NCBI GenBank assembly: GCA_016124235.1
Contig: WGOC01000017.1
Location: 290,967-354,966 of the forward strand
Direction of reading: 5' to 3'
Length of the DNA: 64,000 nucleotides
From: a bacterium
GTDB lineage: Bacteria; Verrucomicrobiota; Verrucomicrobiia; Limisphaerales; RI-55
Positions within the stretch are counted from its first letter, which is position 1, and every line of letters starts with the position of its first letter. Made by a program: the position numbers and the translations under genes. Shown piece after piece: positions 12,886 to 61,370 of this stretch. Under the pieces are notes generated by a model, which did not search any database, had not been told where the DNA came from, and saw only the letters and a program-made list of their open reading frames with translations.

Positions 12886-12887
12886 TC

Positions 12888-23555: not shown

Positions 23556-23783
23556 ATGACAACGGTGAAAACCATGAACGATTCCGACTTCAAATTCTAC
23601 TGTTCCTGCTGCGACCAACCGCTGAAGTGTGATCCGTGCCACGCGGGGCGGCAGATCCAATGTCCCGCCTGCAATCACCTGATCCGCATTCCCAGCCCGC
23701 CTCCCGGAACCGGGTTTACGCATGTGCAACCGGAGTCGGGCCGCACGTGGGATACTTTTGTCCCCAAGGGACGCCAGGCGTGA
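23556..23783 (+). CDS. Small zinc-ribbon protein (75 aa) in the sigma-kinase spacer of cassette 1
   Basis: MTTVKTMNDSDFKFYCSCCDQPLKCDPCHAGRQIQCPACNHLIRIP has a CxxC...CxxC...CxxC arrangement. The second sigma-kinase cassette has only a 108-bp spacer and no comparable ORF. Confidence 0.3.
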   Translation: MTTVKTMNDSDFKFYCSCCDQPLKCDPCHAGRQIQCPACNHLIRIPSPPPGTGFTHVQPESGRTWDTFVPKGRQA

Positions 23784-24374
23784 TTACCGTTTCGAGTGCT
23801 CGTCAGGACTCGATGGTCCACCGCGCATTTCCACCGACAACCAGGCCCGGGCATAGGCCCACCATTGCTTGGCGGTCGGAATAGCAATACCCAAGGCCGT
23901 GGCGGTTTCATTAAACGTCATCCCGACAAAGTACCGCAGCTTGACCAGTTCGGCTTTGCGGGGATCGACGGCGGCCAGCCTTTCCAACGCTTCGCTGACC
24001 CGCAGCAGTCCCTCATCATCGGTAATCGGCGAAGGGATCTCGACCTCATCGAGGCCCAGTCGCTCCGCCCCACCACCACGCTTGGCGGCCAGACGCCGAC
24101 GGGCGCGCTCAACCAAAATCCGGCGCATGGCCTCGGCAGCAGCCGCAAAAAAGTGGGCGCGATTTTGCCAGGCTGGTTGGGCGTCGCCACCGAGTCGAAG
24201 CCAGGCTTCGTGAACGAGGGCGGTCGGCTGCAGCGTCTGGCCGTCGCGTTCGTTGGCCATCCGGCTGGCCGCCAGTTTACGCAATTCGTCGTAAACCAAC
24301 GGCAACAATTCTTCTGCCGCCTGTAAATCACCGGAATCAATTGCGCTGAGAAGCGTGGTCACGTCGCCGGGCAT
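23784..24374 (-). CDS. ECF-subfamily RNA polymerase sigma-70 factor (Planctomycetes/Verrucomicrobia type), cassette 1
   Basis: MPGDVTTLLSAIDSGD...ALVHEAWLRL (region 2) and RYFVGMTFNETATALGI (region 4 helix-turn-helix). It is transcribed ahead of the kinase on the same strand. Confidence 0.85.
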   Translation of the reverse strand: MPGDVTTLLSAIDSGDLQAAEELLPLVYDELRKLAASRMANERDGQTLQPTALVHEAWLRLGGDAQPAWQNRAHFFAAAAEAMRRILVERARRRLAAKRGGGAERLGLDEVEIPSPITDDEGLLRVSEALERLAAVDPRKAELVKLRYFVGMTFNETATALGIAIPTAKQWWAYARAWLSVEMRGGPSSPDEHSKR

Positions 24375-24520
24375 GAGCTGACGCTAATCCCGCCAGCTTT
24401 CGTTGGCCAGACTGAAGCCGGGAATGGAATCGGTCGCGTTCGCCTGTGCAAACGTTCGATCAAAAACTTCCTCAATCAAAAGAAAGTCCGAAACTACCAC
24501 TCGTCGCCAAGGTGTCCCCA

Positions 24521-25366
24521 TTACGTGCCGATGGCGTAGGCCGCCTTGCCGTCGGGCAGACGCCAGATGCCGGCATCGTCCGTGGTGCGGGGCAGCTGGC
24601 TCGCCAACAAATCTCGAACGCGTTGGTAAGCTGGCAGGACCGAGGAACTGACTTCCGTTTCGGCCGCGGCCACAAGTTCCCGCCGCCTGGCCCCGCTCAC
24701 CTCGTCATCCAACCTGGTCAGGCGAGCGTTCAAGGTGGTGACGAACGGATTGGAGTCCGGCGCGTTCGCCGTGAACTTGTCGATCTGTTCGATGGAGCGC
24801 TCGACAATGAACTTCGGCGGGAGAAACCCGGCGGTGGCAGCTGCCCGCGCTTCGGCGATGCCTTCATCGAGCAACGGACCGACCCGGGCCAGCCGGACAA
24901 GATAGTTCTCCGCGTCACGCTCGTTTCGGATCGGATGAACCGTGGTTAGAAAGTGAATGAGCGCCACATGCACTCCGCGAAAATGCTCAAACATGAACTT
25001 GTGCCGCGCAAACTTCTCCTCCTCCACAGCCTGCTCGCAGGTCCAACGAATCACCGCCGCCGAAATGCGCTGGCCCGGGCTGAGCCGGTCGTCCGGATAA
25101 CGTTTCAACTCATTCAAGCCGCGCCGGGCGAGCGCGGCGTCCTCATGGGCCGCCTTCACGCCCCGGTCCAGCACCAGCCGCCGGTCGATGGCGTCCTGCT
25201 CGGCACCTTCGAAGTATTGGGTGCGTGTGGCGAGCTGCGGATGAGCGCGAGCCCAGTCGGCGGCGAACTGGTCGGCCCATTGATCGAACGACGGTTCGGC
25301 AGCGTGGACGACGAGAGTCGCGAGGAGGCCGAGCGCGAAAACGGTGATGGTTGTTTTCTTCAACAT
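24521..25366 (-). CDS. DUF885-family protein, N-terminal half only (possibly truncated)
   Basis: Signal peptide plus RNERDAENYLVRLARVGPLLDEGIAEARAAATAGFLPPKF, which matches the DUF885 N-terminal region. Full-length members are about 580 aa. No continuation was found in any frame downstream. Confidence 0.45.
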   Translation of the reverse strand: MLKKTTITVFALGLLATLVVHAAEPSFDQWADQFAADWARAHPQLATRTQYFEGAEQDAIDRRLVLDRGVKAAHEDAALARRGLNELKRYPDDRLSPGQRISAAVIRWTCEQAVEEEKFARHKFMFEHFRGVHVALIHFLTTVHPIRNERDAENYLVRLARVGPLLDEGIAEARAAATAGFLPPKFIVERSIEQIDKFTANAPDSNPFVTTLNARLTRLDDEVSGARRRELVAAAETEVSSSVLPAYQRVRDLLASQLPRTTDDAGIWRLPDGKAAYAIGT

Positions 25367-25384
25367 TGTTTTGAGTTGTTGACG

Positions 25385-28165
25385 TTATTGAAGCTTCGCC
25401 TTGTAGGCATCGATTCGGGCTTCGAGTTTCGACAGCTTGTCGCGCCAGACGGCGGCTTTCTCCGGTTCCTTCTTCAATTCATAAAGCCGTACCAGCCGCG
25501 CCAAGTTCTGCGGAATCGGAACCAGGGAGGCCGCTCGCAAGCCTCCGCCCCAGGCAACATCCTGCTTTTCGTGAATCTGCGCGCAATGGAGGAGCAGTTC
25601 CTCCGCTTCGTTCAACTCACTCGTCCCCGGGTTCGGTTTCTCGATCAAACAACCGCCGAGGAGGGACAAGGCCCAGGCGTAATTCGCCTGGTCAAAGCCG
25701 GTGAGCGCCTGCGGGCTGCTCAGCGCTTCGTAGGTTTTAACCGCTTTGCGCAGCGTCCGCTCCGCCGTGACCAGGTCGCCGGTTTGCTGCGACCACAGGC
25801 CTTCCCACATCAGGGCACGGGCGGTGTTGACGCTGTTGGGTCCGGAGGCGCTCCGGCAGATTTCGACGAGTTGCCTCACTAAAGGTGCGGCTCCCTTTGG
25901 GTCCTGGAGGCAGGCCAAATAGGTCGCAACCAGGGTATCCATCAGCAATACGGTCGAGGAATGTGCCTCGCCGAAGACGGCCTTGTAACGTGGCAACAGC
26001 CCCTCAAGGGCCGCGGCGCCTTCTTGATACCGGAACTGAAAAATCAACAGGACCGCGCTCCATCGTTCGGCCTCGAGGGTATTGGGGTGGTCCGGCCCAA
26101 GCTTGTCGTTGAACACCTGAATGGCGTGCTTCAGGAGCGGCCCGGCTTCGCCGACGCGAAGATTACGGGAGTAATCCTCCCCCAGTGCCTTGTCCACTTC
26201 AGCCATCACCACGTCGTCCGCGCCGATCAAGGGGGAGTGCCTGGCTGTTTGGCGGAGCTCCTCCAACTGCCGATGCATTTCCTTCAAATTTCCAAAATAG
26301 AATTGGAGGAATGCCAGCCCGAGGCGGGCTCGGATGCTGTCGGGATGTCCTTCTCCCTGCACCCGCGTGCGAAACGCCGCGGCGCTTTGCAGGAGACGGC
26401 TGGCCTCGACCAAGTCACGATCGGTCCGGCGCAGTTCCACCAACGCTGCCGCCAGCGCCTCCTGGGTGACGGGAATCTCGAGATCTGTGTTCGGCAAGCC
26501 GCTCTCCAAAACCGGCAACGCCTCGCTTAATTGCTTCACGGCCTTGTTGTGGAGCCCGATCCCCCCGTAAACACGCCCCGCCATGCTGCGGATGCGCGCT
26601 TCGACCAGCGGAGACTTGTGGGCCTTCCGATCCAGTTCCTGACACGCGCGGTCCAAAACAGTTTGTATGGTCAAACCGCCAGGAGAGTTTTTTCCGGGAT
26701 TGAATTGAGAGAGAACGTCCCCCCACAGGAAATCGTAGACGGCCTGGGAGTCGGCTTCTGCAGTCACCGCCCGCTCGCGCGCTGTCTCGGCATCCTTCTG
26801 TTTTTCCTGAGCCAGAATTCTCTGCTTTAGCTCGGCGCGCCGAGCCGCTTCCGCAAGCTGGCTTGCCCGGGTGGCGCGAACGGCTTGAAACGTGGCAAAA
26901 CTAGCTGCCAGAACCAGCAATGCCGCAATCACTGCCGCGACGCGCATATACTTGCGATTCCTGCGGTAGAACTTGTGGAACTGGTAGCTGAACGTTGGCG
27001 CGGCTGCGGATACGGGTTCGTTGTCCAAATGTCGGCGGATGTCCGACACCAGTCCATTGACCGTTTCGTAGCGATGCGTCCGGTCCTTCTCCAACGCCTT
27101 CATCACGATCCAATCCAGATCCCCCTGAAACTGCTTGCGCAGGGCCACGACTTCCACGCTTCGCTTGTCGGCGGTAACCGTGAGTTCCTCACCCTGCATG
27201 GTGCTCATGCGCGTGCTCGGCTTCGGTGGTTCCTTCTCCGCGATCACCCGCTGCATCTCGCCGTAGCCCATGCTCAACAACTCTTTGCTTGGAAACGGCG
27301 TCGTGCCGGTGAGAAGTTCGTAAAGCAAAACCCCCAGCGAATAAACGTCCGTCCGCGTGTCCACGTCCAGTTTGCTCATCTCCGCCTGTTCGGGACTCAT
27401 GTACGCCGGTGTCCCGATCATCTGGGCGTAGTTGGTAAAGAGCGTCTTCTCGGTGAGCTTCTGGTTCGTCGCCTTGGCTATACCGAAGTCGATCACCATC
27501 GGGTGCGGCTCGCCGTCATTGAGCGTCACCATCACGTTGCTCGGCTTGATGTCCCGATGGATCACCCCCTTCTGGTGCGCGTGCTGGATGGCCTGACAGA
27601 CCGGGATGAAAAGGTTGAGCCGTTCCTGCGTGGAGAGCTTGTTCTTGTCGCAGTACTCGGTGATCGGAACGCCGCGCACCAGTTCCATGACGAAGTAGGG
27701 ACGGCCGGTGTCGGTGGCTCCGGCGTCCAGCACCTTGGCGATGTTAGGATGGTCCATCATCGCCAGTGCCTGGCGCTCGGCCTCGAACCGGGCGACGACC
27801 TGTTTGGTGTCCATGCCAAGCTTAATGATCTTGAGAGCGACTTTGCGAACAACGGGCTCAGTCTGCTCGGCCATGTACACCACACCCATCCCCCCTTCAC
27901 CGACTTTCTGCAAAAGCTTGTAGCGGCCGATCATCGTGCCGGGTTGTTCCAGTACCGGCGTAGCCGCCAGGGTGGATGCGCTCACGGTGTCACCTTGATC
28001 GAACAAGCTGTCCGGGTTCTTCATCGCATCCAGAAGTGATTCCACTTCCTTTCGTAATTCGGCATCGGGGCAGGCTCGTTCGAGATAATCGTGCCGCTGA
28101 GCATCCGTTTCCAAAGCGGCGGCGGTTTCAAAGATGGCTTCCAGTTTTTCGCGTCGATTTTTCAT
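25385..28165 (-). CDS. Ser/Thr protein kinase with TPR-like C-terminal region (cassette 2)
   Basis: Kinase motifs: [34 protein letters not shown] and [10 protein letters not shown]. It is a paralog of 20616..23480. Confidence 0.9.
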
Positions 28166-31096: not shown

Positions 31097-32905
31097 TCAA
31101 TTCTGTTTCGCGTGCGCGTCGCCATTGCTTTTATCGCGCAGCATCACGCCGAGCAACCCATCCACCAGGCTGCTGTTTCCAGCGGCGCCATTGACGGCGA
31201 CATCCGGCACGATGCGAACGTTGCGTTCGCCGACAATCTGCATGAGTTGCATCATCGTGTAACCCTGGGCACCGAGCGAGTCGACACCCGCGCGATAGGC
31301 TTCCGCCTTCGCCTGGCCGGTGGCGCGGATCGCTTCCGATTCGCCGAGCGCGCGTAGACGTAGCGCTTCGGATTCACCGGTCGCCTGCTTGATGTGAGCG
31401 TTGGCCTGGAGTTCAGCGATGTTCACGCCCTGCTCCGCGCCGACCACCTGCTGCTGGATGTCCGCCAGCGAGGTTTGCCGCACGAGTTGCTGTCGTTGTT
31501 CCTGCGCGGCGCGTTGCACCTCGTAGGTCTTGCGTTGTTCCTCGGCGATCTTGCGATCGGTCTGCGTTTCCATGAGGGACGCTGGCGGATTGATGTCGCC
31601 GATCAACGTGTCGATCGCCTGCACGTCGTAGGCTTGGAGCGCGGCTCGAATGTGTTCGGCCGCTTCGTGCTGGCGTTCGCTGCGGGCGCTCAGGAAGTCG
31701 AGCACCGTGTAGTTTTGCGCCGAGTTGCGGAAGTAGTTTCCGACAATCGGTTGCAGCACGTGGTCGATCAGGTTTTGCATCGACCCGATACGGCTGATCA
31801 CTTTCGGCGCATCGAGCGCGCCGACGTGAATGATCTGCGCCACGTCGAGACTGAACGCAAAACCGTCCTTCGAACGCACCGTGATCGACGACAGTTTCTC
31901 GTCGAAATGATGCGCCTCGGTCCGCGTCGCCCAGTTGAGGACGATGTTCGTCGTGGGCACGAGTTCGACCTTCATCACGCGCGTATTGAGCGGATGTTTG
32001 CCGGGATACAACGGCGTCACCCACACACCCTTGTGGCCGGCATTTACGAGGTCGCCGTGTTTGAATTCCGCGCCGCTGACGTCTTCGTGCGCCATGCCGA
32101 CGAAGGAAATGACAACGCCGATGTAACCGATCGGAATTTCCACCATGCGCACCTGTTCCACCTGCGCGAACCAGGGGTTGAGATTCCACGTGCCGGACAA
32201 CAGGATTTGCTCCTGCAAACCGCGCCGGCCGCCACCGTCCAGAAACGCCTGAGCATTCTGAAAGTTGTCGTGAGCGGGAATAATCGCACCGGCAATTTCG
32301 CCCGCGTCAATCGGTCGACCGTCCAATATGGTGACGATGCCCACCTTGTCCGGTTCGACGTGTTGCAGGTAGAGCTGGTGCGCTTCCATGCCGTGCAGCT
32401 CCGCGCTGTCGCTGGTGATCACGTCAAACAACGCGCTGTTGATACGATAGGTACCGGCCGTGAGAATGCCGAGTTGACGGCCTTTCTCACCGCCGTTGAG
32501 CAGGAACTTGCGCGCGTCCTGGTAGTTGTCGCAGTCGACGACTTTGCCGAGGATGCGTTCACTCGGGATCGGTTCGCCCGCAGCCGCGACCACCAACGCG
32601 ATTTCACCTTGCGGTACGACCGTCACCGGCATCTTGAAAATGCGGTATTGCCAGCGCCAGTAACCAAAATGCAGACCCGGCGCGAGCGTGTCCGCCTGAT
32701 AACCGGCCTCGCCTTCCAACGCGATCAACTGGCCGGGCGGCAACGAACGACGGCCAAACTTCTTCACCACGACACCAATCTGGCGTTCCCGAATGAACAC
32801 CGCACCCAAAAGAATCGGAATGAGGACGAACAAAGCCAGAACCACCAAAACAAAAATGGTTGAGGCCAGGGTCGCCAAGTTTTCCAACGATACCAACGCA
32901 GTCAT
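31097..32905 (-). CDS. SPFH/band-7 (flotillin-like) membrane protein
   Basis: An N-terminal transmembrane helix is followed by an SPFH core and a C-terminal Ala/Gln/Glu-rich coiled coil (EAQ-like repeats). Confidence 0.75.
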   Translation of the reverse strand: MTALVSLENLATLASTIFVLVVLALFVLIPILLGAVFIRERQIGVVVKKFGRRSLPPGQLIALEGEAGYQADTLAPGLHFGYWRWQYRIFKMPVTVVPQGEIALVVAAAGEPIPSERILGKVVDCDNYQDARKFLLNGGEKGRQLGILTAGTYRINSALFDVITSDSAELHGMEAHQLYLQHVEPDKVGIVTILDGRPIDAGEIAGAIIPAHDNFQNAQAFLDGGGRRGLQEQILLSGTWNLNPWFAQVEQVRMVEIPIGYIGVVISFVGMAHEDVSGAEFKHGDLVNAGHKGVWVTPLYPGKHPLNTRVMKVELVPTTNIVLNWATRTEAHHFDEKLSSITVRSKDGFAFSLDVAQIIHVGALDAPKVISRIGSMQNLIDHVLQPIVGNYFRNSAQNYTVLDFLSARSERQHEAAEHIRAALQAYDVQAIDTLIGDINPPASLMETQTDRKIAEEQRKTYEVQRAAQEQRQQLVRQTSLADIQQQVVGAEQGVNIAELQANAHIKQATGESEALRLRALGESEAIRATGQAKAEAYRAGVDSLGAQGYTMMQLMQIVGERNVRIVPDVAVNGAAGNSSLVDGLLGVMLRDKSNGDAHAKQN

Positions 32906-48111: not shown

Positions 48112-49563
48112 CTAAGGCCGCACCAGCGGTTCATCCAGCGGAGATTTTTCGACTTTTTGGCAGAGGGGAATCTCCAATACGAATGACGTTCCCTCCGGCG
48201 AACTGTTCTCCAATCGCAATTCCGCACCGAGATGAGCGGCAAGTTGCTTGGAAATCGCGAGGCCGATGCCGGTGCCACCTTCGCGAGTCGACTTGCACGG
48301 CACAAAGAGATCCTGGCGGACCGGGTCCGGCAAACCGGGGCCCTGATCGATAACCCGGCATGTGAGCTGGTCGTGAACGCCGGTCATCTCCAACCGTACA
48401 ACGCTGTCACGAGAGGACGCCTGCAACGCATTCTGCAGGAGATTGCCCAGGATCAAACTCACGAGATTCGCCTGGCGGTTGTCCAGTTGCGCATCGCCCG
48501 AAACGTCCGTCTTGAGGAAGACCCCGGCGGGCTGAAATTGGCCTGCCATCCGTTGGTTCAGGATTTCGGACAACTCCGCGAGCGACAATTCATAGGCCAC
48601 GCCCTGCTCTTCCTCACGCAGCACGCGCACGACCTCGGCGACCATTTGTTGCATTCGTCGAGTCGAATCAACCGCATCCTGCCAGAGCGGGTTCTCCACT
48701 CTTTCCGTGGATCCGCTTTGCCCCTGCACAAACTGGTGCAACCCGCTGAGCGGGTTCTTCAGCCCGTGAATCAAGTGTGCGGTCACCGAGCCAACCGCGG
48801 CCGTTCGCGCGGCCCGAGCGAGTTCCTCGTTGGCGCGCAAAAGATCGCGAGTCCGATCGGCCAACTGACGATGCTTCCGCTGCATCCGCGAAAACGCCCA
48901 GCCAACGCCCGCGGTCAGAATGATGCCGCCCAACCCGAACATCACCGCCGCCTGGGTGATCAGGCTTTGGTCGAGATCCGCAAACTCCGCGGCGATGGAT
49001 TGTCCTTCGAGGATGAACTGACCAATGCCCACGATCTCCGCGCCGGGCTTGGATTGCAAAGGCAGGGTCACCTCAAGAAGCGGCAGGGCGGGTTCCTGAC
49101 CGGACGTCTCGTCGGCCGTCAGAAATATTTCCGAACGATGGACCGCCGGTCGAAATTGTGTCACCGGTTTGGACGACATCAATCGTGCCATTTCAGCAGG
49201 CGTCAGCGAACCTTCGGACACGTCGAACGGCATTGTCGCATAACACGATCCATTCGTTTCGAACAAACGAGTGGCGAGAACACCGCGCGCCCGCGAGGCG
49301 TTGAGCAAAACCGTCCATTGATCGACCGGCTCCCGCACTTCCGCGCGAACCTCGTTCGCAACCTCGGCGAACTGGGCGCCGACCATCGCGCGCAGAACTT
49401 CGACGTCGCGGTTGAGAATCTGTTGCCGAACGCGGGTCCGCATCCGCTGAGCCAGCTCGCCGATGGCCAGTCCGTAAACCGCAAGAATCAGCGCCAACAT
49501 CGACCACATCACCCGACGATTGCGGTGCAATTCGTCGTCGATCGGTCTGGTCGTGGCGGCCAT
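48112..49563 (-). CDS. Sensor histidine kinase with periplasmic sensor domain
   Basis: Two transmembrane helices, a HisKA H-box (HLIHGLKNPLSGL) and HATPase_c motifs (GTGIGLAI). Confidence 0.85.
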   Translation of the reverse strand: MAATTRPIDDELHRNRRVMWSMLALILAVYGLAIGELAQRMRTRVRQQILNRDVEVLRAMVGAQFAEVANEVRAEVREPVDQWTVLLNASRARGVLATRLFETNGSCYATMPFDVSEGSLTPAEMARLMSSKPVTQFRPAVHRSEIFLTADETSGQEPALPLLEVTLPLQSKPGAEIVGIGQFILEGQSIAAEFADLDQSLITQAAVMFGLGGIILTAGVGWAFSRMQRKHRQLADRTRDLLRANEELARAARTAAVGSVTAHLIHGLKNPLSGLHQFVQGQSGSTERVENPLWQDAVDSTRRMQQMVAEVVRVLREEEQGVAYELSLAELSEILNQRMAGQFQPAGVFLKTDVSGDAQLDNRQANLVSLILGNLLQNALQASSRDSVVRLEMTGVHDQLTCRVIDQGPGLPDPVRQDLFVPCKSTREGGTGIGLAISKQLAAHLGAELRLENSSPEGTSFVLEIPLCQKVEKSPLDEPLVRP

Positions 49564-51561: not shown

Positions 51562-52983
51562 TTAATCGGCCGCACCACGTTTCGCATCAAGGCGATAACG
51601 CACGTAATCACGCGAAACACCGAGCAACCGGGCCGCCGCCGAAACGTTCTGATTGGTTTGCTTAAGCGCGTGGTGAATCAAATGATTGATCGCCGCCTCC
51701 AACGAAAAACCGTCTTCCGGATAGCGAAATGCCTCATTGAACCATTGGTCGGGACCGAGTCCACCACCCAGCACGCCCGAGCTGGAGCTCGCTCCATCCA
51801 GATGACTGAATTCCAACTGGTCGCCTTCTTCGAAGACGATTGCACGCTCCAGTTCATGGGCCAACTCGCGGACGTTCCCCGGAAAGCCATGTCGCAACAA
51901 ACGCTCGCGCCCGGCGTCACTGATCTTTCGCGCTGGCACTCGATGCTTTCGTGACACCTGATCCAACAAACGTTCGGCGAGCGGCACAATGTCATTCCGC
52001 CGCATACGCAGCGGCGGAATGCTGAGTCGAAAAAGATCGAGCCGATGCAGCAGGTCCTCCCGGAATTCCCCGTTCGCCACGGCTTCGCGCAGATCACGAT
52101 TGGTCGCCGCAATAATCCGGGCGTTCACGTTGATCGGCTTGTTGCTTCCCACGCGCCGGATCTGCCGGTCCTCAATCGCGGTCAGCACCTTCGCCTGCAA
52201 CGCCGACGACAAGCTTGGTAGTTCGTCGAGAAACAACGTTCCCCCGTCAGCGGCCTCGAACAGCCCCATGCGGGCCGCCTTAGCATCGGTAAAAGCACCG
52301 CGCTCGTGTCCAAATAGTTCCGACTCCGCCAACGACTCCGGCAACGCCGAACAGTTGACCTCCACCAACGGCGCCTTCGCCCGCGGTCCATTCTGGTGAA
52401 TCCAACGCGCGATCGTGGTTTTGCCCGTGCCCGTTTCACCTTCGATCAAAACGGGCGGCGCGGGCTCGCTCACTCCCATGCGCACGTCGGCCGCGATAAT
52501 TTTATTGATCCGATCTTCCAGCGCCGCGAGGGACTCACCGAAAAAGAAGGCCGGTTGGTTGCGCGCCACTTCGGAGCGTCGATGTTGCTCCACGCGATCC
52601 GACTGGCGTGTACGCCGCACCCGGCGAAACACCAACGGCAATTCCGCCGGTTCAAAAGGTTTCGCCAAGAAATCCAACGCACCCAATCGCAGCGCTTCGA
52701 CGGCTGTATTCACCTCGGCTTCGGCGGTCATCACGATGACAGCCGTGTTGGTGCCGAACGCGTTGATCTTGAGTAATTCGGTACCGCGTCCGTCGGGCAA
52801 ATTGAGGTCGAGCAATACAAAGTCGAAACTGAGCGAATCGGCGAAACTCCGTGCCGTACCGAGATCACCGGCCTGCGAGATATCTGCGCCCAACCGCTCC
52901 AAATGTGCAGCGATCTGCTTCCGCAGCAGCACCTCGTCGTCAACGATCAAAACGCTGACACCCGCCAGTTCCATCAAAGGCAT
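51562..52983 (-). CDS. Sigma-54-dependent response regulator (NtrC/ZraR family: REC + AAA+ + Fis-type HTH)
   Basis: REC domain D-box; GETGTGKT Walker A; GAFTDA and ESELFGH signatures; C-terminal helix-turn-helix. Confidence 0.9.
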   Translation of the reverse strand: MPLMELAGVSVLIVDDEVLLRKQIAAHLERLGADISQAGDLGTARSFADSLSFDFVLLDLNLPDGRGTELLKINAFGTNTAVIVMTAEAEVNTAVEALRLGALDFLAKPFEPAELPLVFRRVRRTRQSDRVEQHRRSEVARNQPAFFFGESLAALEDRINKIIAADVRMGVSEPAPPVLIEGETGTGKTTIARWIHQNGPRAKAPLVEVNCSALPESLAESELFGHERGAFTDAKAARMGLFEAADGGTLFLDELPSLSSALQAKVLTAIEDRQIRRVGSNKPINVNARIIAATNRDLREAVANGEFREDLLHRLDLFRLSIPPLRMRRNDIVPLAERLLDQVSRKHRVPARKISDAGRERLLRHGFPGNVRELAHELERAIVFEEGDQLEFSHLDGASSSSGVLGGGLGPDQWFNEAFRYPEDGFSLEAAINHLIHHALKQTNQNVSAAARLLGVSRDYVRYRLDAKRGAAD

Positions 52984-53310
52984 GCGCGAGTTTTGCCGGG
53001 AGCCGTCCCCGATGAAAACTGAAAACGTACAAAGTTCCGTACTTGGCGGATCATTCCCCCCTAGCCATTGATTTACGAACAGAAGCTGGAGCCGGTCGTG
53101 GGCAGGCCTTCAACACACAGAGGAGCGCGCGCGACGGCGAGTGGGCGCGTTGCTTCGCAAAACAGGACGCGCTTACCGCCCGTGGTCCTCCCGGAGCGCG
53201 GCCTGCAATTCGCTATTCTCGCCAATCCAAATCCACGTTGGTTGAACAACAGACAAGTAGTTCGCGCTAATTCGTGGAATTCGCGTCCATCCCGTGCCTT
53301 CTACCCCTTT

Positions 53311-53363
53311 TCTCTACACATGTAGATTTACCGGTTGACATCTTTACGTTTGTAGAGATAGTG
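53311..53363. promoter_or_regulatory. Putative blaI promoter with two BlaI/MecI-type TACA-N-TGTA operator dyads
   Basis: TCTACAcaTGTAGA (53313-53326); -35 TTGACA (53335-53340); 17-bp spacer containing TCTTTACGtttGTAGAGA; -10-like GATAGT. The blaI ATG is 28 bp downstream. Confidence 0.45.
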
Positions 53364-53390
53364 GCCGGCAACCACCCAAAATCACTGACC

Positions 53391-53777
53391 ATGCCTGAAT
53401 CATCCGTTGAATTGACCGAAGCCGAATGGGCCATCATCAAAGCCATCTGGAAGTCCGAGCCCACCACCGCCCCGGCCGTCCAGGAGGCGCTCTTCAAACA
53501 AACCGGCTGGACCTACAGCACCGTCCGTACGCTCATGGATCGCATGACTGTCAAAGGGCTGCTCAAGGCGACCAAGAAAGGCAAGGTCACGAGCTTTACG
53601 TCGGCCGTCACGCGCGCCCAGGCCCAGCGCAGCGAACTTCTTTACGCGTTGAAGCACGCCTTCAATGGTGCACTCACGCCGATGGTTCAGTGCCTTCTCG
53701 AATCGCAAAAGCTGAGCGATGCCGAGATCACCGAACTGGAAACGCTTATTCGCGAGCGCAAACGGAGGGGGAAATGA
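53391..53777 (+). CDS. BlaI/MecI/CopY-family transcriptional repressor (penicillinase-repressor fold)
   Basis: LTEAEWAIIKAIWKSEPTTAPAVQEAL...WTYSTVRTLMDRMTVKGLL is a winged-helix BlaI signature. The ATG is at 53391. Confidence 0.85.
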   Translation: MPESSVELTEAEWAIIKAIWKSEPTTAPAVQEALFKQTGWTYSTVRTLMDRMTVKGLLKATKKGKVTSFTSAVTRAQAQRSELLYALKHAFNGALTPMVQCLLESQKLSDAEITELETLIRERKRRGK

Positions 53778-53937
53778 AAACGACGACAAACGAAACCGCG
53801 AAGCTAGTTCCTCGCGCAAACGCTGGAACGGCCGACGGTCCAAGGACCAAGGTTCAAGCCCAAATGAAACTTCAATTACCAATTCAACAATCCGCCATCA
53901 AGTCGCCCCAAACGTTGACTCTTCCATGGGTTGATTG

Positions 53938-53983
53938 TTGGAAGTTCCCTGGAACTTTGACCTTTGACCTTGGAACTTCACCC
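53938..53983. promoter_or_regulatory. Palindrome/direct-repeat cluster in the blaI - blaR1-secretin spacer
   Basis: Near-perfect 16-bp palindrome AAGTTCCctGGAACTT (53942-53957), tandem TTTGACC x2 (53956-53969), and a third TTGGAACTTCA (53970-53980). It lies 30-75 bp upstream of ATG 54013. Confidence 0.35.
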
Positions 53984-54012
53984 GTCCCCCCTGCGAACAA
54001 ACATGATCCCGT

Positions 54013-57000
54013 ATGAACGGATTCATTGAACAACTGAACCAGTGGGGATTGACCGCGATTCCCTTCGCCGCCCAACTGCTGTGGCAGACGAGCGTGTTGA
54101 TCGTGGTGTTGCTGGCACTGGATTTGGTCCTGCGCAACCGGGTGCGGGCGGGCTTTCGTTACACGCTCTGGACGTTATTGCTGGTCAAGTTGGTCCTGCC
54201 GCCAACCATCGCCTTCCCGACGGGCGTGGGTTATTGGGTCAATCGATCGACTAAAGAAACGCCTGTGCAACAAACGGTGGTCCTTCAGCCAAAGTTCGAA
54301 GTCGCTTACCCAACCGTCGTAACCACCGAGGCATCAGCTTTCCAAAGCGTCCAAAACTTCGAACCGCTTCCGGCAACCGAACCAGCACCACCACCACCGA
54401 CACCGAAGCTCTCGCGCGATGGCTGGTTGTTGGTTGCTTCGGTGAGTGGCACGTTGCTTCTGCTCAGTTGGATGCTCTGGCGCTGGCGTTGGGTCAACCG
54501 GATCGTCAAAGCCAGCACGTCGGCTGCTGATGAACTTCAGCAACTCGCGGTTGATTGTATTCAATCGATGAGGTCGTCCGGCGCCAGTGTGCTGCCGGCA
54601 GCTTGCCGGCAGAAAGACAGGCGAGACGCCTCTCCTACCCTGCGGCTCACCGATGCTCCGATGTCACCAGCGGTGTATGGTCTATTTCGTCCGGTCATCT
54701 TGTTGCCCCGACAACTCGTGAGCCGGCTCTCGATCGAGCAACTCCGCACCGTTCTTCTGCACGAGTTGATCCATCTGCGCCGACGTGATCTCTGGGTGAA
54801 CTGTCTGCAGTCGATTCTGCAAATCGCGTGTTGGTGGCACCCGTTGCTCTGGTTGGCTAATGCCCGGATTCGACGCGTCCGCGAGGAAGCCGTCGATGAA
54901 GCGGTGGCCAGCGCGTTGCGCGACGACGCCGATGCCTATCCCGCAACTTTACTCGAAGTCGCCAAATTCACCATTACCCGACCGTTGATGACGCTCGGAT
55001 TGGTCGGCATTTTGGAATCGAAGAACGCCCTGAAGCAACGCATTCGTCGCTTGCTCGAACAAAAGCCTCTCGACAGCACTCGTCTCAAGTGGTGGCAGTG
55101 GACCGCTCTCATCGGCTTTGCCCTCGCCGCGCTGCCGATGGCTCAGGGGCAGCGCGATTTCTCCAGCCAGAAGAGCAAAACGTCCACCGCCGAAGAATTG
55201 CCAAAGCCAAATTCGAATTCGCCCATAACTGAGAATGACAGCACTCCCACCAACGTCTCGGTTGAAGTTCGAATCATAGAAATCGCGGAAACCAATTTGC
55301 ACAACCTCGGACTTGATAGGCCGGACTGGATACTTCCGACCGGACTCAACACTCCGGAAGCGGTCAGCTTCAAGGATGGTCTGGCAATCCTTACGGACCC
55401 CCAATTCCGCATAGTCATCAAGGCCTTGGAACAGAGGCAGGGCGTCAATCAATGGTTCGTCCCTCGTGTCACTACCGCAAGCGGGAAACCGGCCCAATTT
55501 AGACTGACCAACTCGCCGACTTCGGGTCCACGCCAACAGAACAGTCTTCTTCAAGATTTCAGTCCTTTGATCGACGTCATTCCTTATGTCGCGGCTGACG
55601 GAGCAATGATTCAAACGACGGTCGCCGCAACCGTAGGTCCGTTTGCGGATGCCACGGGATCGGCCAATTCCCTGTCTCGTCCCGGAGGTGGGGATTTAGC
55701 AGATCCAGCACATAAATCCTATTTTCAAGACTGGAGCAACCGAGGGACAGAAATTAACGCCGATGCGCCAAAACCTTCACCATTCCATATTCGGAGAATC
55801 ACAACCACGGCAAACGTCTGGAACGGTCAAACGATAGTTCTCGCAGGCTCACCCGGTCATTCGCGGGCAGGCGACTCAACCAACACGACTCAGACCCTCG
55901 TGTTTGTCACACCTTCCATCGTCGGCAAGCAGCTCGACTGGTCTCGCGCAAATACAAGGCCACCGCAACCCACGGGGAAAAAGGATCAAGGAACTGATTC
56001 GAATCCCACTGAACCACCGACCAACGAGAAACGGGACAGTACCAACCCCAATACGCAAACGACCGACCTCTCGAACTTGGTCTCCGCCGCTGCCGTCGAT
56101 CTACAGGCCCAGAAAGACACGCTACGCTCGCTTTGCGATAAACTCGGATACGTGAAGCTTTGGACGTTTGACACCGCAACAATCAGCAGTCCGTTTGTGG
56201 AGCATCAACTAAAGTTACTTGAACCGCAGAAGCCAGAACTTCAGGCGTGCATTGATCAGCTAAGGGAAGCGCGCAATCGGCAAAACACCGTTGAAATGCG
56301 GCTGGCCCAGACAAAGATTAACGCCGAACTGAACAAAAATCGCGGGCCATACGATCAACGCGAAGCGGCTGGCGCAATCTCAAACCAGCTTTCCTCCGTT
56401 GCACTGGAGCTTGAACACGCGAGATCAGAATATGAACGACTAAAGAACGAGCTGGGATCCGACCCGTCACTCAATCCTGAACAAACGCTCAGCAAGTCCG
56501 AGTTTCTTCGACTGCTCCCCGTTGTGCAGGCGGGAATCAAAGTCAACCAGTGCTCGAACGTGTTGGAATCGCTAAGAATTGCTGCGGCGAAACAGTCCGC
56601 ACAATTTGAGGGCGGTGTTCCATCCAATTTGCCGGGCTCAGATATAAGTAGATTCTCGCCTCCCTATTCACTCAACGATACGAACTTGGACGTCATGGGC
56701 CTGCACATGATCCGGGATCAATCCTCTTGGCCGGATTCGCGGTTCAAGGGTTATCACCCGATCGGTTTGGAACCGCGCTTTGTGCTGGTTCCCATCGAGG
56801 GATTGAAGAAGGCGCTGAACGGTCAACTGCCGGTCGCCCAACCGCTCATCGTCGCCTCAAACCAACTCGACGCGCTGACCAACTCATTGATCGAAGCCGG
56901 CGCGATGGATCATTCATCCGCCGAGCCGATGCGCTTCGGCAAGATGAGCGGCGGTGTTTTCCACTGGAACGTCGCCAGTAACGCCGTAGCGCGCGTGCAA

Positions 57001-58869
57001 TTCCAGACAACCAAAGCCGCTTCGTCGAACCACGAGGTCGCCTTCGGCGCGCGGCAGGACATGCCGGCCTACACGCCGGACTGGGTTCCGCTCACGCTGC
57101 TGGCCCGGCCGTTTGCTGCGGAGGACGATTCGTTGCGCTGTCTGCTGAGTTTCCAAACCGGTGCGTATGATCCGCCGAGTCTCGCCAGGACCGAGGCAGA
57201 CATTCCGCTGGGCGCGGCGTTGGTTTGGGCGTCCACGAATGAAGTGCGGCCGGGCTTCGCGCAGGTGGTCATTTTGAAAAACATCGGCAGTCCGCCGCCG
57301 GAAGAACAACCACGCGGGGAGGAAAATGACCTACACCGTCCCCTAGCAAACGTAGAGCAGGCCTGGCCACAACCGATCGACCAACAGCCATCCGCGCAAC
57401 CGAATACGGGCGACACTCCAGGCCGGCACAAGATTATGGAGAAGTTGAGAAAGATCACCATCGAGAAGCTCGTCTATGAAGGAAGGCCGTTGTCAGAGGT
57501 GGTTAATGATTTGAACGACGAGGCGCGTCGCCGGGATCCCGCAGGTGAAGGCATCAATTTCATGCTCGCTTCGTCGATACAAAATACGATTGATCCGGCA
57601 ACGGGCCAGCCCATCGCCACATCTTGGACAGGTGTCAGTCAGCCGGACATTGAGGGCACGACCATCGATATCAATCCGCCCATGTACAACATCAAGCTGA
57701 TCGACGCATTGAACGCGATCGTCCTGGCGGCGGATCGCAAGATCGAATTCAACGTTGATGACTTTGCAGTCATTATCAGGTCGCGGATGCCCGAAACCGA
57801 ACATCTCGAAACGCGCACGTTCCGGGTCAATCCCATCACGTTCTACAAACGACTGATGGATGTGATCGCCAACATGAATGGCACGACCAACAATCCGGAT
57901 GCCAATGCCAGCGGTACGGACCTCCGTTCGTCCACCGATCGCCTGGCTGCATTCAATCAGGCAATACGGGCCTATTTTGACGCGGCCGGTGTCGAGATTG
58001 CCGCTCCCAAGAGGGTCTACTTCAACGACCGTACGGGAATACTGTTGGTCAGGGCAACCCCGGCGGACCTCGAGATTATTCAGCGAGCTGTTGAAATGCT
58101 CAATTACGAGCCGCCGCAGATTACGATTGAAGCGCAGGTCTTCTTCTTGACGGCTGATGATGTTCAGGCAGCCGGACTCCATTGGATTTTGAACGCCGAT
58201 TCAGAAAGCGAATCGGCGGCAACCAATGGTGTTACGCCTGTCTTTACTGAACCTCAGGCCAAAGTCGTGCTTGACGCGCTGAAACAAAGATCTGACGTGG
58301 AGCGACACTTCCTCCCCCGAGTCACGACGCTGAGCGGCAGCCAGACTCAGTTGAAGGCCGTCTCGTTGAAAACGGTTGTTACCGGTAAAGCCAATGGACC
58401 CGCCGGTCCAACCCACCTCTCCAAGGATCTCGAATTGGGCGACGTCCTGGATTTGAAACCTGAAGTCGGCCCGGACGGCTACACCGTCACCCTGGATCTC
58501 AATTTCCATCACAATGAGTTTCTTGGTTACGACGATCCTGCGTCAACCGGACAACCCGAGGGCACCCCGATCTCGAACGTCATCGACCGAAGCGTGACCA
58601 CAAAGGCCAACGTTTGGGACGGCCAAACATTGGCGATCGGAGGCATGATCGTAGAGCGACCGATGATTTACAAAAGCAAGGTTCCTGTTTTGGGCAGCAT
58701 CCCCCTCCTGGGCCGCGCCTTCCGAAGCGAAAGGCATGAAACTGAAACCCGCCATCTCCTTGTCTTGATCACTCCGCGAATCATCGACCCTGCTGGAAAC
58801 ACGGTCCACAAACCGGAAGACATGCCCTTCGCCAAGGACGCCGTCCCGAAACAGCCGGACGAGAAATGA
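54013..58869 (+). CDS. Giant BlaR1/MecR1-family (M56 peptidase) signal-transducer fused to tandem secretin-N/secretin (GspD-like) domains
   Basis: N-terminal four transmembrane helices plus HELIHLRRRD (M56 HExxH). A further transmembrane segment near residue 370 is followed by VEVRIIEIAETNLHNLGLD and QITIEAQVFFLTADDVQAAGLHW (secretin-N-like). The C-terminal secretin signature is VPVLGSIPLLGRAFRSERHETETRHLLVLITPRII. Confidence 0.75.
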   Translation: MNGFIEQLNQWGLTAIPFAAQLLWQTSVLIVVLLALDLVLRNRVRAGFRYTLWTLLLVKLVLPPTIAFPTGVGYWVNRSTKETPVQQTVVLQPKFEVAYPTVVTTEASAFQSVQNFEPLPATEPAPPPPTPKLSRDGWLLVASVSGTLLLLSWMLWRWRWVNRIVKASTSAADELQQLAVDCIQSMRSSGASVLPAACRQKDRRDASPTLRLTDAPMSPAVYGLFRPVILLPRQLVSRLSIEQLRTVLLHELIHLRRRDLWVNCLQSILQIACWWHPLLWLANARIRRVREEAVDEAVASALRDDADAYPATLLEVAKFTITRPLMTLGLVGILESKNALKQRIRRLLEQKPLDSTRLKWWQWTALIGFALAALPMAQGQRDFSSQKSKTSTAEELPKPNSNSPITENDSTPTNVSVEVRIIEIAETNLHNLGLDRPDWILPTGLNTPEAVSFKDGLAILTDPQFRIVIKALEQRQGVNQWFVPRVTTASGKPAQFRLTNSPTSGPRQQNSLLQDFSPLIDVIPYVAADGAMIQTTVAATVGPFADATGSANSLSRPGGGDLADPAHKSYFQDWSNRGTEINADAPKPSPFHIRRITTTANVWNGQTIVLAGSPGHSRAGDSTNTTQTLVFVTPSIVGKQLDWSRANTRPPQPTGKKDQGTDSNPTEPPTNEKRDSTNPNTQTTDLSNLVSAAAVDLQAQKDTLRSLCDKLGYVKLWTFDTATISSPFVEHQLKLLEPQKPELQACIDQLREARNRQNTVEMRLAQTKINAELNKNRGPYDQREAAGAISNQLSSVALELEHARSEYERLKNELGSDPSLNPEQTLSKSEFLRLLPVVQAGIKVNQCSNVLESLRIAAAKQSAQFEGGVPSNLPGSDISRFSPPYSLNDTNLDVMGLHMIRDQSSWPDSRFKGYHPIGLEPRFVLVPIEGLKKALNGQLPVAQPLIVASNQLDALTNSLIEAGAMDHSSAEPMRFGKMSGGVFHWNVASNAVARVQFQTTKAASSNHEVAFGARQDMPAYTPDWVPLTLLARPFAAEDDSLRCLLSFQTGAYDPPSLARTEADIPLGAALVWASTNEVRPGFAQVVILKNIGSPPPEEQPRGEENDLHRPLANVEQAWPQPIDQQPSAQPNTGDTPGRHKIMEKLRKITIEKLVYEGRPLSEVVNDLNDEARRRDPAGEGINFMLASSIQNTIDPATGQPIATSWTGVSQPDIEGTTIDINPPMYNIKLIDALNAIVLAADRKIEFNVDDFAVIIRSRMPETEHLETRTFRVNPITFYKRLMDVIANMNGTTNNPDANASGTDLRSSTDRLAAFNQAIRAYFDAAGVEIAAPKRVYFNDRTGILLVRATPADLEIIQRAVEMLNYEPPQITIEAQVFFLTADDVQAAGLHWILNADSESESAATNGVTPVFTEPQAKVVLDALKQRSDVERHFLPRVTTLSGSQTQLKAVSLKTVVTGKANGPAGPTHLSKDLELGDVLDLKPEVGPDGYTVTLDLNFHHNEFLGYDDPASTGQPEGTPISNVIDRSVTTKANVWDGQTLAIGGMIVERPMIYKSKVPVLGSIPLLGRAFRSERHETETRHLLVLITPRIIDPAGNTVHKPEDMPFAKDAVPKQPDEK

Positions 58870-59052: not shown

Positions 59053-59143
59053 TACTTTGGATCGCATCGCTTTCGCGCCACTGATCTTTGCCTCCCTGCT
59101 TGCGTTGCTCCCGGGTCTTATTAAGACTCGTCGGCAATCGCGC

Positions 59144-60142
59144 ATGATTCGTTCGCTTGTATTTACCACCCAGGGCCGGCTGCATAGCAAGGACATCGAC
59201 GTGTTCCTGATGCCCACGCTGTTGGCAGACACGAACCTGTTTCTCTGGGTCGACCTCGAGGCGGCGACACCGGAGGAAACAAAATCACTGTTGGAAGGTG
59301 TGTTTCATTTTCACCCGCTCTCCATCGAGGACGCGGTGCAGGAAAGTTCATCGCCGAAGGTCGAGGAGTATCAGCCCAAGGAAGGTGACGGATTTTCGCC
59401 GTACCTGTTCATGGTCATTCACGCCGTGAACTACAGCCGGAAGGACGGTGTGTTCGCGACGACCGAGTTGAATTTCTTCCTCGGGAAGAACTTTCTGGTG
59501 ACGTATCACGAAGTTCCGATTCGGAGTGTCAGCCTGACCGAGGAACGCGCGATCAATTCCAAGATGCACATCGCGCGCGCGCCGGACCGCGTGGCGCACA
59601 CTTTGTTGGACGCCATCGTAGACGCATACAAACCGGCGTTGGAGGAACTCTCGTTGGAAATCGCGGAACTCGAGCAGGAAGTGCTGACGAATCCCAACAA
59701 GGAGGTGCTGAACAAGCTCATCCAGATCAAGAAGGAAGTGCTCCACCTGCGGCAGATCATCGGTCCGCAGCGCGAAGTTTTGGCGCGATTTGCCCGGGGC
59801 GAGTTCAAACTGATCCGGGCACATTTGGTGCCGTATTACCGCGACGTCTACGACGGTTTGTTCAAAATCTACGAACTGGCACAGGGCTATACGGATTCTC
59901 TCACGGCGATTCTCCAGGTCTATTTAAGCATGACCTCCAACGAGACGGGTGAAGTGGTGAAATTGCTGACGCTGATCACGTTGCTCACGACGCCGTTGAT
60001 GATTGTGGGCACCTGGTACGGAATGAATTTTGAGGGCATGCCGGAATTGCGTCACCAGCACGCCTACCCGGTCGCCATTGGATTCACGGTTGTCACGACG
60101 GCGTTGACGTATTGGTTTTTCAAACGGAAGAAGTGGTTTTGA
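59144..60142 (+). CDS. corA: Magnesium/cobalt transporter CorA
   Basis: C-terminal YGMNFEGMPEL motif plus two transmembrane helices and a KRKKWF end. The ATG at 59144 gives 332 aa. The track ORF starts at TTG 59057. Confidence 0.85.
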   Translation: MIRSLVFTTQGRLHSKDIDVFLMPTLLADTNLFLWVDLEAATPEETKSLLEGVFHFHPLSIEDAVQESSSPKVEEYQPKEGDGFSPYLFMVIHAVNYSRKDGVFATTELNFFLGKNFLVTYHEVPIRSVSLTEERAINSKMHIARAPDRVAHTLLDAIVDAYKPALEELSLEIAELEQEVLTNPNKEVLNKLIQIKKEVLHLRQIIGPQREVLARFARGEFKLIRAHLVPYYRDVYDGLFKIYELAQGYTDSLTAILQVYLSMTSNETGEVVKLLTLITLLTTPLMIVGTWYGMNFEGMPELRHQHAYPVAIGFTVVTTALTYWFFKRKKWF

Positions 60143-60149: not shown

Positions 60150-61370
60150 GTGAGTACGCCGAAAAGCAGCTTTTTGGATCGCGTATTGGGTCGGATTGGC
60201 CGGCTCGACAAACAAGGCCTGCAAACCGTCATCGAACGGCTCGCCCGTGAACGGACGTTTCTCGAGACGCTGTTCAACGCGATCGAGGACGGCGTGCTGG
60301 TGATCGATGAATCGGGAAAAATTCTCTACTTCAACCAGGCGGTGACGGATTTGATCGGCTTGCAGGAGCGCGAAGCGGAGGGCCAGAACATCCGCCGTTA
60401 TCTGCCGGACCTCGATTGGGAAACGCTCGCCAAACGCAAAAAAAGCAACTCCGCGCGGGTGTTGCGGCAGGAGTTTGAAGTGTTCTATCCGCGGCAGCGT
60501 TTCATCCGGCTCTACGCGGCTCCACTGAGCAGCGACGGCGACAGTTCGGGCATGGCATTGATCATTCACGACGCCACCGAAGCGCGGCAGCAAACCTTCG
60601 AAGCGATCGAGAGTGAACGGATTGAAGCACTGACACTGCTCGCCGCCAGCGTCGCCCACGAGATCGGCAACCCGCTCAACGCGTTGCACATCCACCTGCA
60701 ATTGATGGAGCGCGAGCTGAAGAAACTTCGCGGCAGTCACGCGGAAGCTTCAAAAAAAATCGCTGGCGCCAGTCTCAAAAAAGACCTGGCCGAAATCACC
60801 GATCGATTGGACAAGTATCTCGAGGTTTGCAAGGGCGAGATCTCGCGGCTCGACTACATTATCACGCAGTTCCTTCAGGCGATCCGGCCCACGAAACCGC
60901 AGCTTGAGGAAGCCTCGCTCAACCAGGCCGTCACCGACACGATCGCGCTTTTGCATCCGGAGCTGGTCAATCGCGGCCTCCAAATCGAGGAGGACCTGGC
61001 TTCCAATCTGCCGATGGCACCGATCGATGCCGGACAGATCAAACAAGTGCTCTTGAACCTGATCAAGAACGCCATGCAGGCGATGACGCGACACGGCAAA
61101 TTGACCTTGGCGACAGGCGTCACCGGCGAAGGTGTGTGGGTCAGTGTGGCCGACACCGGCGGCGGCATTCCGCAGGAAAAGATCAACCAGATTTTTCAGC
61201 CGTTCTTCACAACCAAGAAGAAAGGCACCGGGCTGGGATTGATGATCGTCCAACGAATCGTTCGCGAGCACGGCGGACGGATCGAAGTCGAAAGTCATCT
61301 CGGCACCGGCACCACTTTCCGCATCTGGCTGCCGTTGCACGAGCGCCAGCCACGCTTGCTGAAGGGTTGA
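60150..61370 (+). CDS. PAS-domain sensor histidine kinase (cytoplasmic)
   Basis: PAS region, H-box [13 protein letters not shown] and HATPase motifs GTGLGL. GTG start. Confidence 0.85.

Follow-up and report, generated by a model that had tools for sequence, protein, structure and literature searches.

The 64,000-nucleotide (nt) stretch of DNA analyzed here (the window; positions 290,967 to 354,966 of contig WGOC01000017.1, assembly GCA_016124235.1, from a member of the Limisphaerales, lineage RI-55, in the Verrucomicrobiota) carries a blaI repressor gene followed by a gene for a 1618-amino-acid (aa) protein in which a BlaR1-type M56 membrane protease is fused to secretin modules. The initial annotation had proposed this pairing, and both open reading frames (ORFs) are indeed present and are matched by the Penicillinase_R, Peptidase_M56, and Secretin profiles. 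The two genes are conserved as a pair whose promoter region carries BlaI-type TACAnnTGTA dyads, and the large protein consists of the M56 protease followed by three secretin-fold modules (termed Sec1, mid, and the C-terminal module), of which only the last is complete. We propose, with a probability of about 0.5, that the unit is a self-contained, autoregulated switch of the BlaI/BlaR1 type in which the penicillin-binding sensor has been replaced by a periplasmic chain ending in a secretin protomer, giving an envelope-spanning sensor.

The large ORF (54013 to 58869, + strand) encodes 1618 aa in a continuous reading frame with a gene-like GC content at third codon positions (GC3) of 0.64. Its first 380 residues (54013 to 55152, +) were assigned to the M56 (BlaR1-type) membrane zinc protease domain from Pfam, alignment with BlaR1, and hydropathy. 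Peptidase_M56 matches aa 25 to 345 (E = 3.5e-36; 125 bits; cutoff, 31) and encloses HELIH (aa 250 to 254), the sole HExxH in the protein, so that the proposed M56 context of this motif is borne out. HELIH aligns with H201EYAH of Staphylococcus aureus BlaR1 (8exs), E291xxxD295 lies 41 residues past H250, which is the spacing between H201 and E242 in BlaR1, and D259 and Y309 match D210 and Y261. The BlaR1 motifs H201ExxH, E242xxxD, D210, and Y261 belong to a protease that cleaves BlaI directly and whose active site faces the cytoplasm (PMC9834060). Across 120 aligned homologues, H250, H254, D259, E291, D295, and Y309 never vary, and the protease is therefore under selection to remain active. The M56 domain thus retains the full set of catalytic signature residues of S. 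aureus BlaR1 and is predicted to be an intact protease.

Three strong hydrophobic segments (about aa 15 to 40, 50 to 70, and 137 to 157) are evident from hydropathy, a fourth, WWQWTALIGFALAALPMAQG, was read off the sequence at about aa 360 to 378, and the loops after segments 1 and 3 are rich in Arg and Lys. The protein therefore has the four-transmembrane (TM) scaffold with a gluzincin site that characterizes BlaR1 and MecR1 (MEROPS M56). Hydropathy and charge together fit the topology of BlaR1, with the protease predicted to be cytoplasmic and everything past the fourth segment periplasmic.

Searches of Pfam and NCBIfam found no penicillin-binding or class D β-lactamase-like (SxxK) domain anywhere in the 1618 residues. 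The NCBIfam model blaR1_generic scores 103 bits against a cutoff of 400 and covers only profile positions 8 to 308 of 585, i.e., the protease half, and no β-lactamase or penicillin-binding protein gene is adjacent to the module. A classical β-lactam sensor governing resistance, as in Staphylococcus and Bacillus, would account for the BlaI and M56 family matches, but it is refuted by this domain content and these neighbors, and we give it practically no chance.

In place of such a sensor, the periplasmic part (aa ~380 to 1618) comprises ~1240 aa of secretin-type modules, the last of which is a secretin by several measures. First, the Pfam Secretin profile is matched over its full length (positions 1 to 169 of 169; E = 3.4e-32; 112 bits; cutoff, 27.5) at aa 1422 to 1592 (58276 to 58788, +), a domain that is also matched by PilQ and GspD chains (E = 1e-13) and by Foldseek, while the NCBIfam models for GspD, PilQ, MshL, and SctC likewise match the C terminus. 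Second, KVPVLGSIPLLGRAF at aa 1556 to 1570 includes the conserved motif KVPVLGSIPLLG (aa 1556 to 1567), which agrees with the VPxLGxxPxLGxLF pattern, and the lip-loop residues F1503, G1505, and Y1506 are nearly invariant in the 120 homologues. Third, the AlphaFold2 model of aa 1100 to 1618 (predicted local distance difference test score, 82.6) contains long β-hairpins arranged in pairs, as in a secretin barrel, and all 40 of its Foldseek matches with E values of <1e-3 are secretins (BfpB at 1.5e-15, PilQ, PulD, GspD, InvG, and others). The secretin assignment of this region in the initial annotation is confirmed by both the full Pfam profile and the fold matches.

Upstream of the barrel lie putative secretin N-domains, N0 at aa ~1128 to 1262 and N1/N3 at aa ~1265 to 1421 (together 57394 to 58275, +). 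The Pfam model Secretin_N stays below its threshold here (17 to 22 versus 28.2 bits), and the N0-N1 assignment is made because of the match to the Amuc_1098 family and the fold search, in which N0-N1 fragments of XcpQ, EscC, MxiD, and InvG were matched (E = 2e-3 to 1e-2; probability, 0.95 to 1.0). The Amuc_1098 match is collinear, with profile positions 218 to 502 on aa 1111 to 1408 and positions 650 to 804 of 805 on aa ~1460 to 1600; by this alignment, the last ~500 residues are collinear with the verrucomicrobial type IV pilus secretin from the predicted N0 to the C terminus. The score for the Amuc_1098 equivalog (NF042912) is 201 bits against a cutoff of 750, and profile positions 1 to 217 are absent. 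Because its scores lie far under both equivalog cutoffs, the fusion is best classified as related to the Amuc_1098 and blaR1_generic families and as a full member of neither.

The secretin domain is followed by a family-specific C-terminal tail (..IDPAGNTVHKPEDMPFAKDAVPKQPDEK) and the stop codon (58789 to 58869, +), as delimited by alignment. D1592, G1595, and N1596 are nearly invariant in the 120 homologues. The tail (aa 1593 to 1618; 58789 to 58866; IDPAGNxVH..PF....PPQP) is itself nearly invariant in the family and is kept in a 727-aa orthologue described below.

The initial annotation had recognized two secretin-N/secretin units. The C-terminal unit stands, as a complete N0-N1-secretin, whereas the internal one, Sec1 (aa ~415 to 638; 55255 to 55926, +), is degenerate, scoring 17.6 bits with Pfam Secretin and thus falling below the cutoff of 27.5. 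Sec1 is a secretin-domain paralogue according to hhalign (probability, 100%; E = 2.5e-40) and BLAST, which aligned it with the protein's own C terminus (3.5e-10) and with paralogues (down to 1e-29), and it lacks the ~22-residue KVPxLGxxPLLGxxFRS segment, the EFLGY loop motif, and any N-domain. Sec1 is followed by a Pro/Thr/Asn-rich linker (aa ~639 to 688) and a Leu/Glu/Gln-rich region that reads as helical from its composition (aa ~689 to 894; the two together, 55927 to 56694, +), both of which are common to only ~6 close relatives. The Pro/Thr/Asn-rich linker had been described correctly, whereas the coiled coil proposed with it was not supported by a crude Fourier test of hydrophobic periodicity, which gave no 3.5-residue (heptad) signal in aa ~689 to 894.

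The mid domain (aa ~895 to 1095; 56695 to 57297, +), which was absent from the earlier description of the protein, was delimited by profile search and fold and is family specific and predicted to be periplasmic. Of 1.84 billion cluster representatives searched exhaustively with its profile, 42 contain mid, which is confined to the fusion family; in the shorter relatives, of 900 to 1250 aa, mid lies nearly always at residues ~360 to 560, directly after the fourth TM segment. A word-index homologue search with mid as the sole query gave no matches, and comparison of mid with secretins by hhalign found no sequence-level homology (probability, 0.5%). Its predicted fold is remotely secretin-like.

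Of the three secretin-fold modules, Sec1 (without KVPxLG and EFLGY) and mid (only remotely similar) are degenerate, and the modules could instead form a periplasmic scaffold without a pore, in which they would take the place of the BlaR1 sensor domain and serve in oligomerization or ligand binding. Such a scaffold would suit an orthologue (L001, below) that has only a degenerate secretin domain, and it would suit the lack of conserved genes for a pilotin or a partner in the vicinity. It is difficult to reconcile with a C-terminal module that covers the whole secretin profile, including KVPVLGSIPLLG, that is modeled with the long paired β-hairpins of the secretin barrel, and whose lip-loop residues F1503, G1505, and Y1506 are nearly invariant, and we regard it as improbable.

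The repressor gene (53391 to 53777, +) encodes a 128-aa winged-helix protein of the BlaI/MecI family, as judged by Penicillinase_R, MecI, and the family alignment. Penicillinase_R (Pfam) matches the small ORF over profile positions 1 to 114 of 115 (E = 4.3e-27; 95 bits; cutoff, 22.6), the closest solved relative is MecI (1sd6; E = 6e-12; residues 4 to 121 aligned), and the protein follows the BlaI/MecI/CopY plan of an N-terminal winged helix and a C-terminal helical dimerization domain in ~120 to 130 aa. The GTG at 53274, from which blaI had initially been read, is an over-extension. The likeliest start is the ATG at 53391, because homologues start ~5 residues ahead of ELTEAEW and because the promoter-like site at 53335 to 53362 is 3' of 53274. 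A CopY-type copper repressor was considered and rejected: the C-terminal half has a single Cys and no CxCxxxxCxC metal site, and the CopY_TcrY model gives 70 bits against a cutoff of 122. The scissile bond of the staphylococcal BlaI and MecI proteins is Asn101-Phe102. Its position is occupied here by the LKHAFNGALTPMVQCLL stretch, which is nearly invariant in the family and is the best-conserved part of the C-terminal half of the alignment.

blaI is preceded by a predicted σ70-like promoter (TTGACA-16 nt-GATAGT; 53335 to 53362, +), which agrees with the consensus at 10 of 12 positions and is a consensus match only. Dyad 1, TCTACAcaTGTAGA (53313 to 53326), is a perfect 6+6 inverted repeat with 0 mismatches and abuts the -35 hexamer; dyad 2, TTTACGttTGTAGA (53343 to 53356), an imperfect copy with 2 mismatches (inverted repeat I2), is located 30 bp from dyad 1 in the promoter spacer, and the two bracket and overlap the predicted promoter. 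In the 64-kb window, TACANNTGTA has a single occurrence, compared to 0.07 expected. For comparison, one genome per GTDB species was scanned, which gave 54 related loci, and operator and neighbor scans covered ±10 kb per related locus and the 64 kb of the source genome. Of 52 related blaI genes, 46 have TACAnnTGTA in their upstream region, often in the form of two dyads 30 to 31 bp apart at about -58 and -27 (both exact in many homologous loci). The motif occurs 64 times in 965 kb of related loci, each time no more than 130 nt ahead of a blaI gene. The extended operator consensus of the related loci is (C/A)T(T/C)TACAnnTGTA(A/G)A. The presence and conservation of this TACA/TGTA inverted repeat at the unit's own promoter mark it as a predicted BlaI-type operator, and the operator idea of the initial annotation is thereby upheld, with a perfect dyad at the blaI promoter that is conserved across the family. 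The same annotation had called for a genome-wide search for further TACA/TGTA sites; within the window and ±10 kb of each locus, none was found beyond blaI promoters.

The spacer between blaI and the protease gene (235 nt; 53778 to 54012, +) is probably non-coding according to an ORF test and RNA folding. It is unusually long for the family, in which most related loci have <60 nt, and contains an imperfect 31-nt inverted repeat (I1; 53834 to 53864 and 53956 to 53986; RNA fold z-score, -2.15). An 80-aa ORF within it (53774 to 54016) is joined to the blaI stop and the protease start by ATGA overlaps. It was rejected as a gene, with no tblastn or blastn conservation in the 54 loci and a GC3 of 0.47 versus 0.64 to 0.74 in the flanking genes.

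NCBI lists a protein identical to the 1618-aa fusion, encoded on a contig of 373 kb, as “hypothetical protein GC207_09135 [bacterium].” A homologue search returned more than 590 matching proteins; nearly all of the best 120 have both PF05569 and PF00263, and these 120 are 906 to 2081 aa long, with named sources in the Verrucomicrobiota, Verrucomicrobiae, or Limisphaerales. The window comes from a metagenome-assembled genome (MAG), but hundreds of independent assemblies (NCBI, JGI, ENA, and Logan) share this architecture, as do 49 genomes of different GTDB species, which refutes an artefactual fusion by frameshift or misassembly; the continuous frame and the GC3 of 0.64 also argue against it, and its likelihood is negligible.

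The match reaches past the M56 part in 49 of the 54 loci, which are MAGs mostly labeled Verrucomicrobiia, subdivision 3, or Limisphaerales. In the other five, four Planctomycetota loci (27 to 29% identity) and one Sphingomonas locus (27 to 32% identity over all five), the M56 part alone is present, with no secretin. Judged from this sample of 54 loci, the M56-secretin fusion is confined to the Verrucomicrobiota. Several MAGs with typical verrucomicrobial blaI/M56-secretin modules (e.g., L014, L030, L033, L036, L040, and L042) bear the bin names “uncultured Bifidobacteriaceae,” “Dongiaceae,” “Pseudomonadales,” or “Acidiferrales,” which are probably wrong. Such fusions had been described initially as known only as uncharacterized proteins of the Planctomycetes-Verrucomicrobia-Chlamydiae (PVC) group. 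“Uncharacterized” is accurate, as literature searches on BlaR1 or M56 with secretins, on Verrucomicrobia and Planctomycetes, and on secretin fusions found no study of the M56-secretin architecture, but a PVC-wide distribution is not supported, as the sampled loci place the fusion only in the Verrucomicrobiota. Database labels for these proteins are “M56 family metallopeptidase,” “hypothetical,” or automatic double COG names.

Of the 54 loci, 49 have blaI directly ahead of the fusion gene, the five exceptions being two contigs that end inside the fusion gene and three distant M56-only loci (L050, L051, and L054). ORF clustering over the 54 loci (±10 kb) found no conserved third gene and only housekeeping synteny within orthologous groups (aconitase, peroxiredoxin, response regulator, and isocitrate dehydrogenase). 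The type II or III secretion, type IV pilus, or phage export gene set that would accompany a secretin was also not found: within ±10 kb, none of the 54 loci has genes for the ATPase or platform of a secretion or pilus machine. The 64-kb window contains no further M56, BlaI, or secretin copies. Its only T2SSE-type ATPase gene is PilT-like and lies 48 kb from the fusion gene (5366 to 6556, -). The module is flanked on its 5' side by genes for a divergent σ54-dependent response regulator (51562 to 52983, -) and a histidine kinase (48112 to 49563, -) and on its 3' side by genes for CorA (59057 to 60142, +) and a PAS histidine kinase (60150 to 61370, +). The locus is syntenic with one of the related loci, L001 (σ54 response regulator, blaI, fusion gene, CorA, and PAS kinase), an order that is not kept family-wide.

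The M56 part is 44 to 60% identical across homologues, while the middle of the protein is variable, with TPR, HEAT, ExbD-like, mid, or extra secretin-like inserts. Tandem paralogues occur at three loci (L028, L035, and L044), and on a JGI metagenome contig (L055; 6736 to 17657) a single blaI gene stands before three consecutive fusion genes encoding 927, 1361, and 1122 aa, which suggests either that one repressor serves several sensors or that the products form hetero-oligomeric rings. Across the alignments, M56, BlaI, and the operator are constant, and the predicted periplasmic part is very plastic even between orthologues. Variable inserts and paralogue expansion on a constant M56 part are typical of a sensor family and would be its expected sequence signature.

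The secretin might alternatively be the effector rather than part of a sensor. The protein would then be a regulated channel (for uptake, export, or a pilus, possibly as a subunit of another secretin ring) with an assembly or homeostasis checkpoint, in which the M56 part would serve mainly as an anchor that reports assembly and tunes the operon via BlaI, and no external cue would be sensed. This would agree with the operon itself as the sole detectable BlaI target, with a C-terminal module that is a complete secretin close to the Amuc_1098 pilus-secretin family, and with one blaI before three tandem fusion genes, which suits hetero-oligomeric rings. Yet no ATPase, platform, or pilin genes are conserved beside the module, paralogue expansion and variable periplasmic inserts are typical of sensors and not of structural channels, and the secretin domain of one orthologue (L001) is degenerate. 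We consider a channel of this kind unlikely.

If the unit is instead an autoregulated, envelope-spanning sensor, as we favor, BlaI dimers would recognize the TCTACAnnTGTAGA dyad and repress their own operon. The C-terminal secretin module would enter the outer membrane within an oligomer, and the fourth TM segment would anchor the same chain in the inner membrane. A periplasmic or outer membrane change (a ligand or cargo, partner binding, or envelope perturbation) would be relayed by the fourth segment, together with the conserved periplasmic loop, to the zinc protease, whose activation would parallel that of BlaR1, where it is triggered by acylation of the sensor domain (PMC9834060). The protease would then cut BlaI in the LKHAFNGALTPMVQCLL region, and the operon would be derepressed. 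As neither a further operator nor a conserved third gene was seen nearby, the unit would, as far as is visible, mainly produce more of the sensor/channel itself. Domain order and BlaR1 topology make it reasonable to suppose, as the initial annotation did, that the fusion physically reaches or gates the outer membrane.

Several points weigh against this proposal. First, the orthologue at L001 (9968 to 12151), a 727-aa protein whose M56 part is 58% identical to the 1618-aa protein, has neither Sec1 nor the linker, mid, or N0, and KVPxLGxxPLLG is missing from its only secretin domain; judged from this orthologue, a canonical pore may be dispensable for the family. Second, the Asn-Phe dipeptide of S. 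aureus is absent from BlaI, and the aligned site is Cys-Leu (..VQC/LLE.., with the slash at the aligned bond). Third, there is a symmetry mismatch between BlaR1, which is a domain-swapped dimer (PMC9834060), and solved secretin rings, which have 12 to 17 protomers (PDB chain counts). Fourth, distant BlaI targets could exist beyond the ±10 kb scanned per locus and the 64 kb of the source genome. Finally, outer membrane insertion, oligomerization, signaling, and BlaI cleavage are, for all family members, inferred from sequence.

A bolder form of the sensor proposal, which we put forward as speculative and on balance doubtful, would make the fusion the protomer of a trans-envelope machine. Stacked secretin-fold rings (Sec1, mid, N0/N1, and the barrel) would extend from an inner membrane M56 ring to an outer membrane pore, and opening or occupancy of the conduit would be read as repressor proteolysis. 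Paralogue arrays with differing inserts would then be a counterpart of TonB-dependent signaling, e.g., for the detection and uptake of macromolecules.

The module resembles the BlaI/BlaR1 and MecI/MecR1 systems of S. aureus and Bacillus licheniformis (8exp/8exs and 1sd6) in having a winged-helix repressor beside a four-TM M56 gluzincin (here in the order blaI-protease), HExxH and ExxxD at 41-residue spacing with equivalents of D210 and Y261, and TACA/TGTA dyads at its own promoter. Direct repressor cleavage is established for BlaR1 (PMC9834060) and predicted for the fusion. Unlike these systems, the fusion has no penicillin-binding sensor but ~1240 aa of secretin-type extracytoplasmic sequence, its host is diderm, so that what lies “outside” is the periplasm and outer membrane, the module controls no resistance gene, and the Asn-Phe dipeptide is not conserved. 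With the secretins PilQ, GspD, and the Amuc_1098 family, it shares a C-terminal N0-N1-secretin region of ~500 aa, with the full Pfam profile, KVPxLGxxPLLG, and the predicted fold. In contrast to these secretins, it is tied covalently to an inner membrane protease instead of being a free signal-peptide-bearing protein, it lacks the first ~217 Amuc_1098 profile positions and adjacent pilus or secretion genes, and it carries extra degenerate modules upstream.

The nearest architectural analogues are the M56-TonB_C fusions of Bacteroides, e.g., TonB1 and TonB10 of B. thetaiotaomicron, which are uncharacterized (bioRxiv 10.1101/2023.07.07.548152) and also combine an M56 protease with a periplasm-spanning part reaching the outer membrane. 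Their distal TonB_C docks on TonB-dependent transporters, whereas the distal domain of the fusion is a predicted channel subunit. FecA-FecR-FecI provides a functional analogy only: an outer membrane component with an N0/STN-type domain signals to an inner membrane regulator and on to a transcription factor freed by proteolysis, and the outer membrane component is both sensor and induced product. It differs in consisting of three unrelated proteins (sigma/anti-sigma) on separate polypeptides and in having a TonB-dependent transporter as its barrel. The N0 domain of secretins and the signaling domain of TonB transducers share a fold family (Secretin/TonB N-terminal domain), and both couple to inner membrane partners.

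Secretins are regarded as passive outer membrane gates of secretion and pilus machines, and BlaR1-type proteases are regarded as antibiotic sensors of monoderm bacteria. Their union, kept together with repressor and operator across many Verrucomicrobiia genomes, suggests an unstudied principle of diderm signaling, and the module, an uncharacterized variant of BlaI/BlaR1 restricted to the Verrucomicrobiota in the loci sampled, may couple outer membrane and transcription in a distinct way. If so, it would link the two through one polypeptide, a third solution beside anti-sigma/TonB-transducer and two-component systems, and would give a function to the large group of proteins from soil and freshwater Verrucomicrobia that are annotated as “M56 family metallopeptidase.” With M56, BlaI, and a 14-bp operator as the constant transmitter and periplasmic inserts that can be exchanged, it would amount to a naturally modular sensor design. 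BlaI/BlaR1 matches in environmental genomes, moreover, should not be read as β-lactam resistance determinants.

Further features of the window lie apart from the module. A cyclic di-AMP riboswitch (RF00379; 33015 to 33175, -; 56.7 bits; gathering threshold, 38) is located upstream of a gene for a 602-aa SPFH/Band 7 protein (31097 to 32905, -). A tRNA gene (8533 to 8616) precedes a segment whose GC content is reduced (0.49 versus ~0.57 to 0.60) and in which two RlaP-family nucleotidyltransferase genes lie around an AAA_21/DUF4435 ATPase gene, and the whole region (8533 to 13667) may be a small mobile or defense island. Two large Ser/Thr protein kinase genes (20616 to 28165, -) encode proteins of 954 and 926 aa, one of which has TPR repeats.

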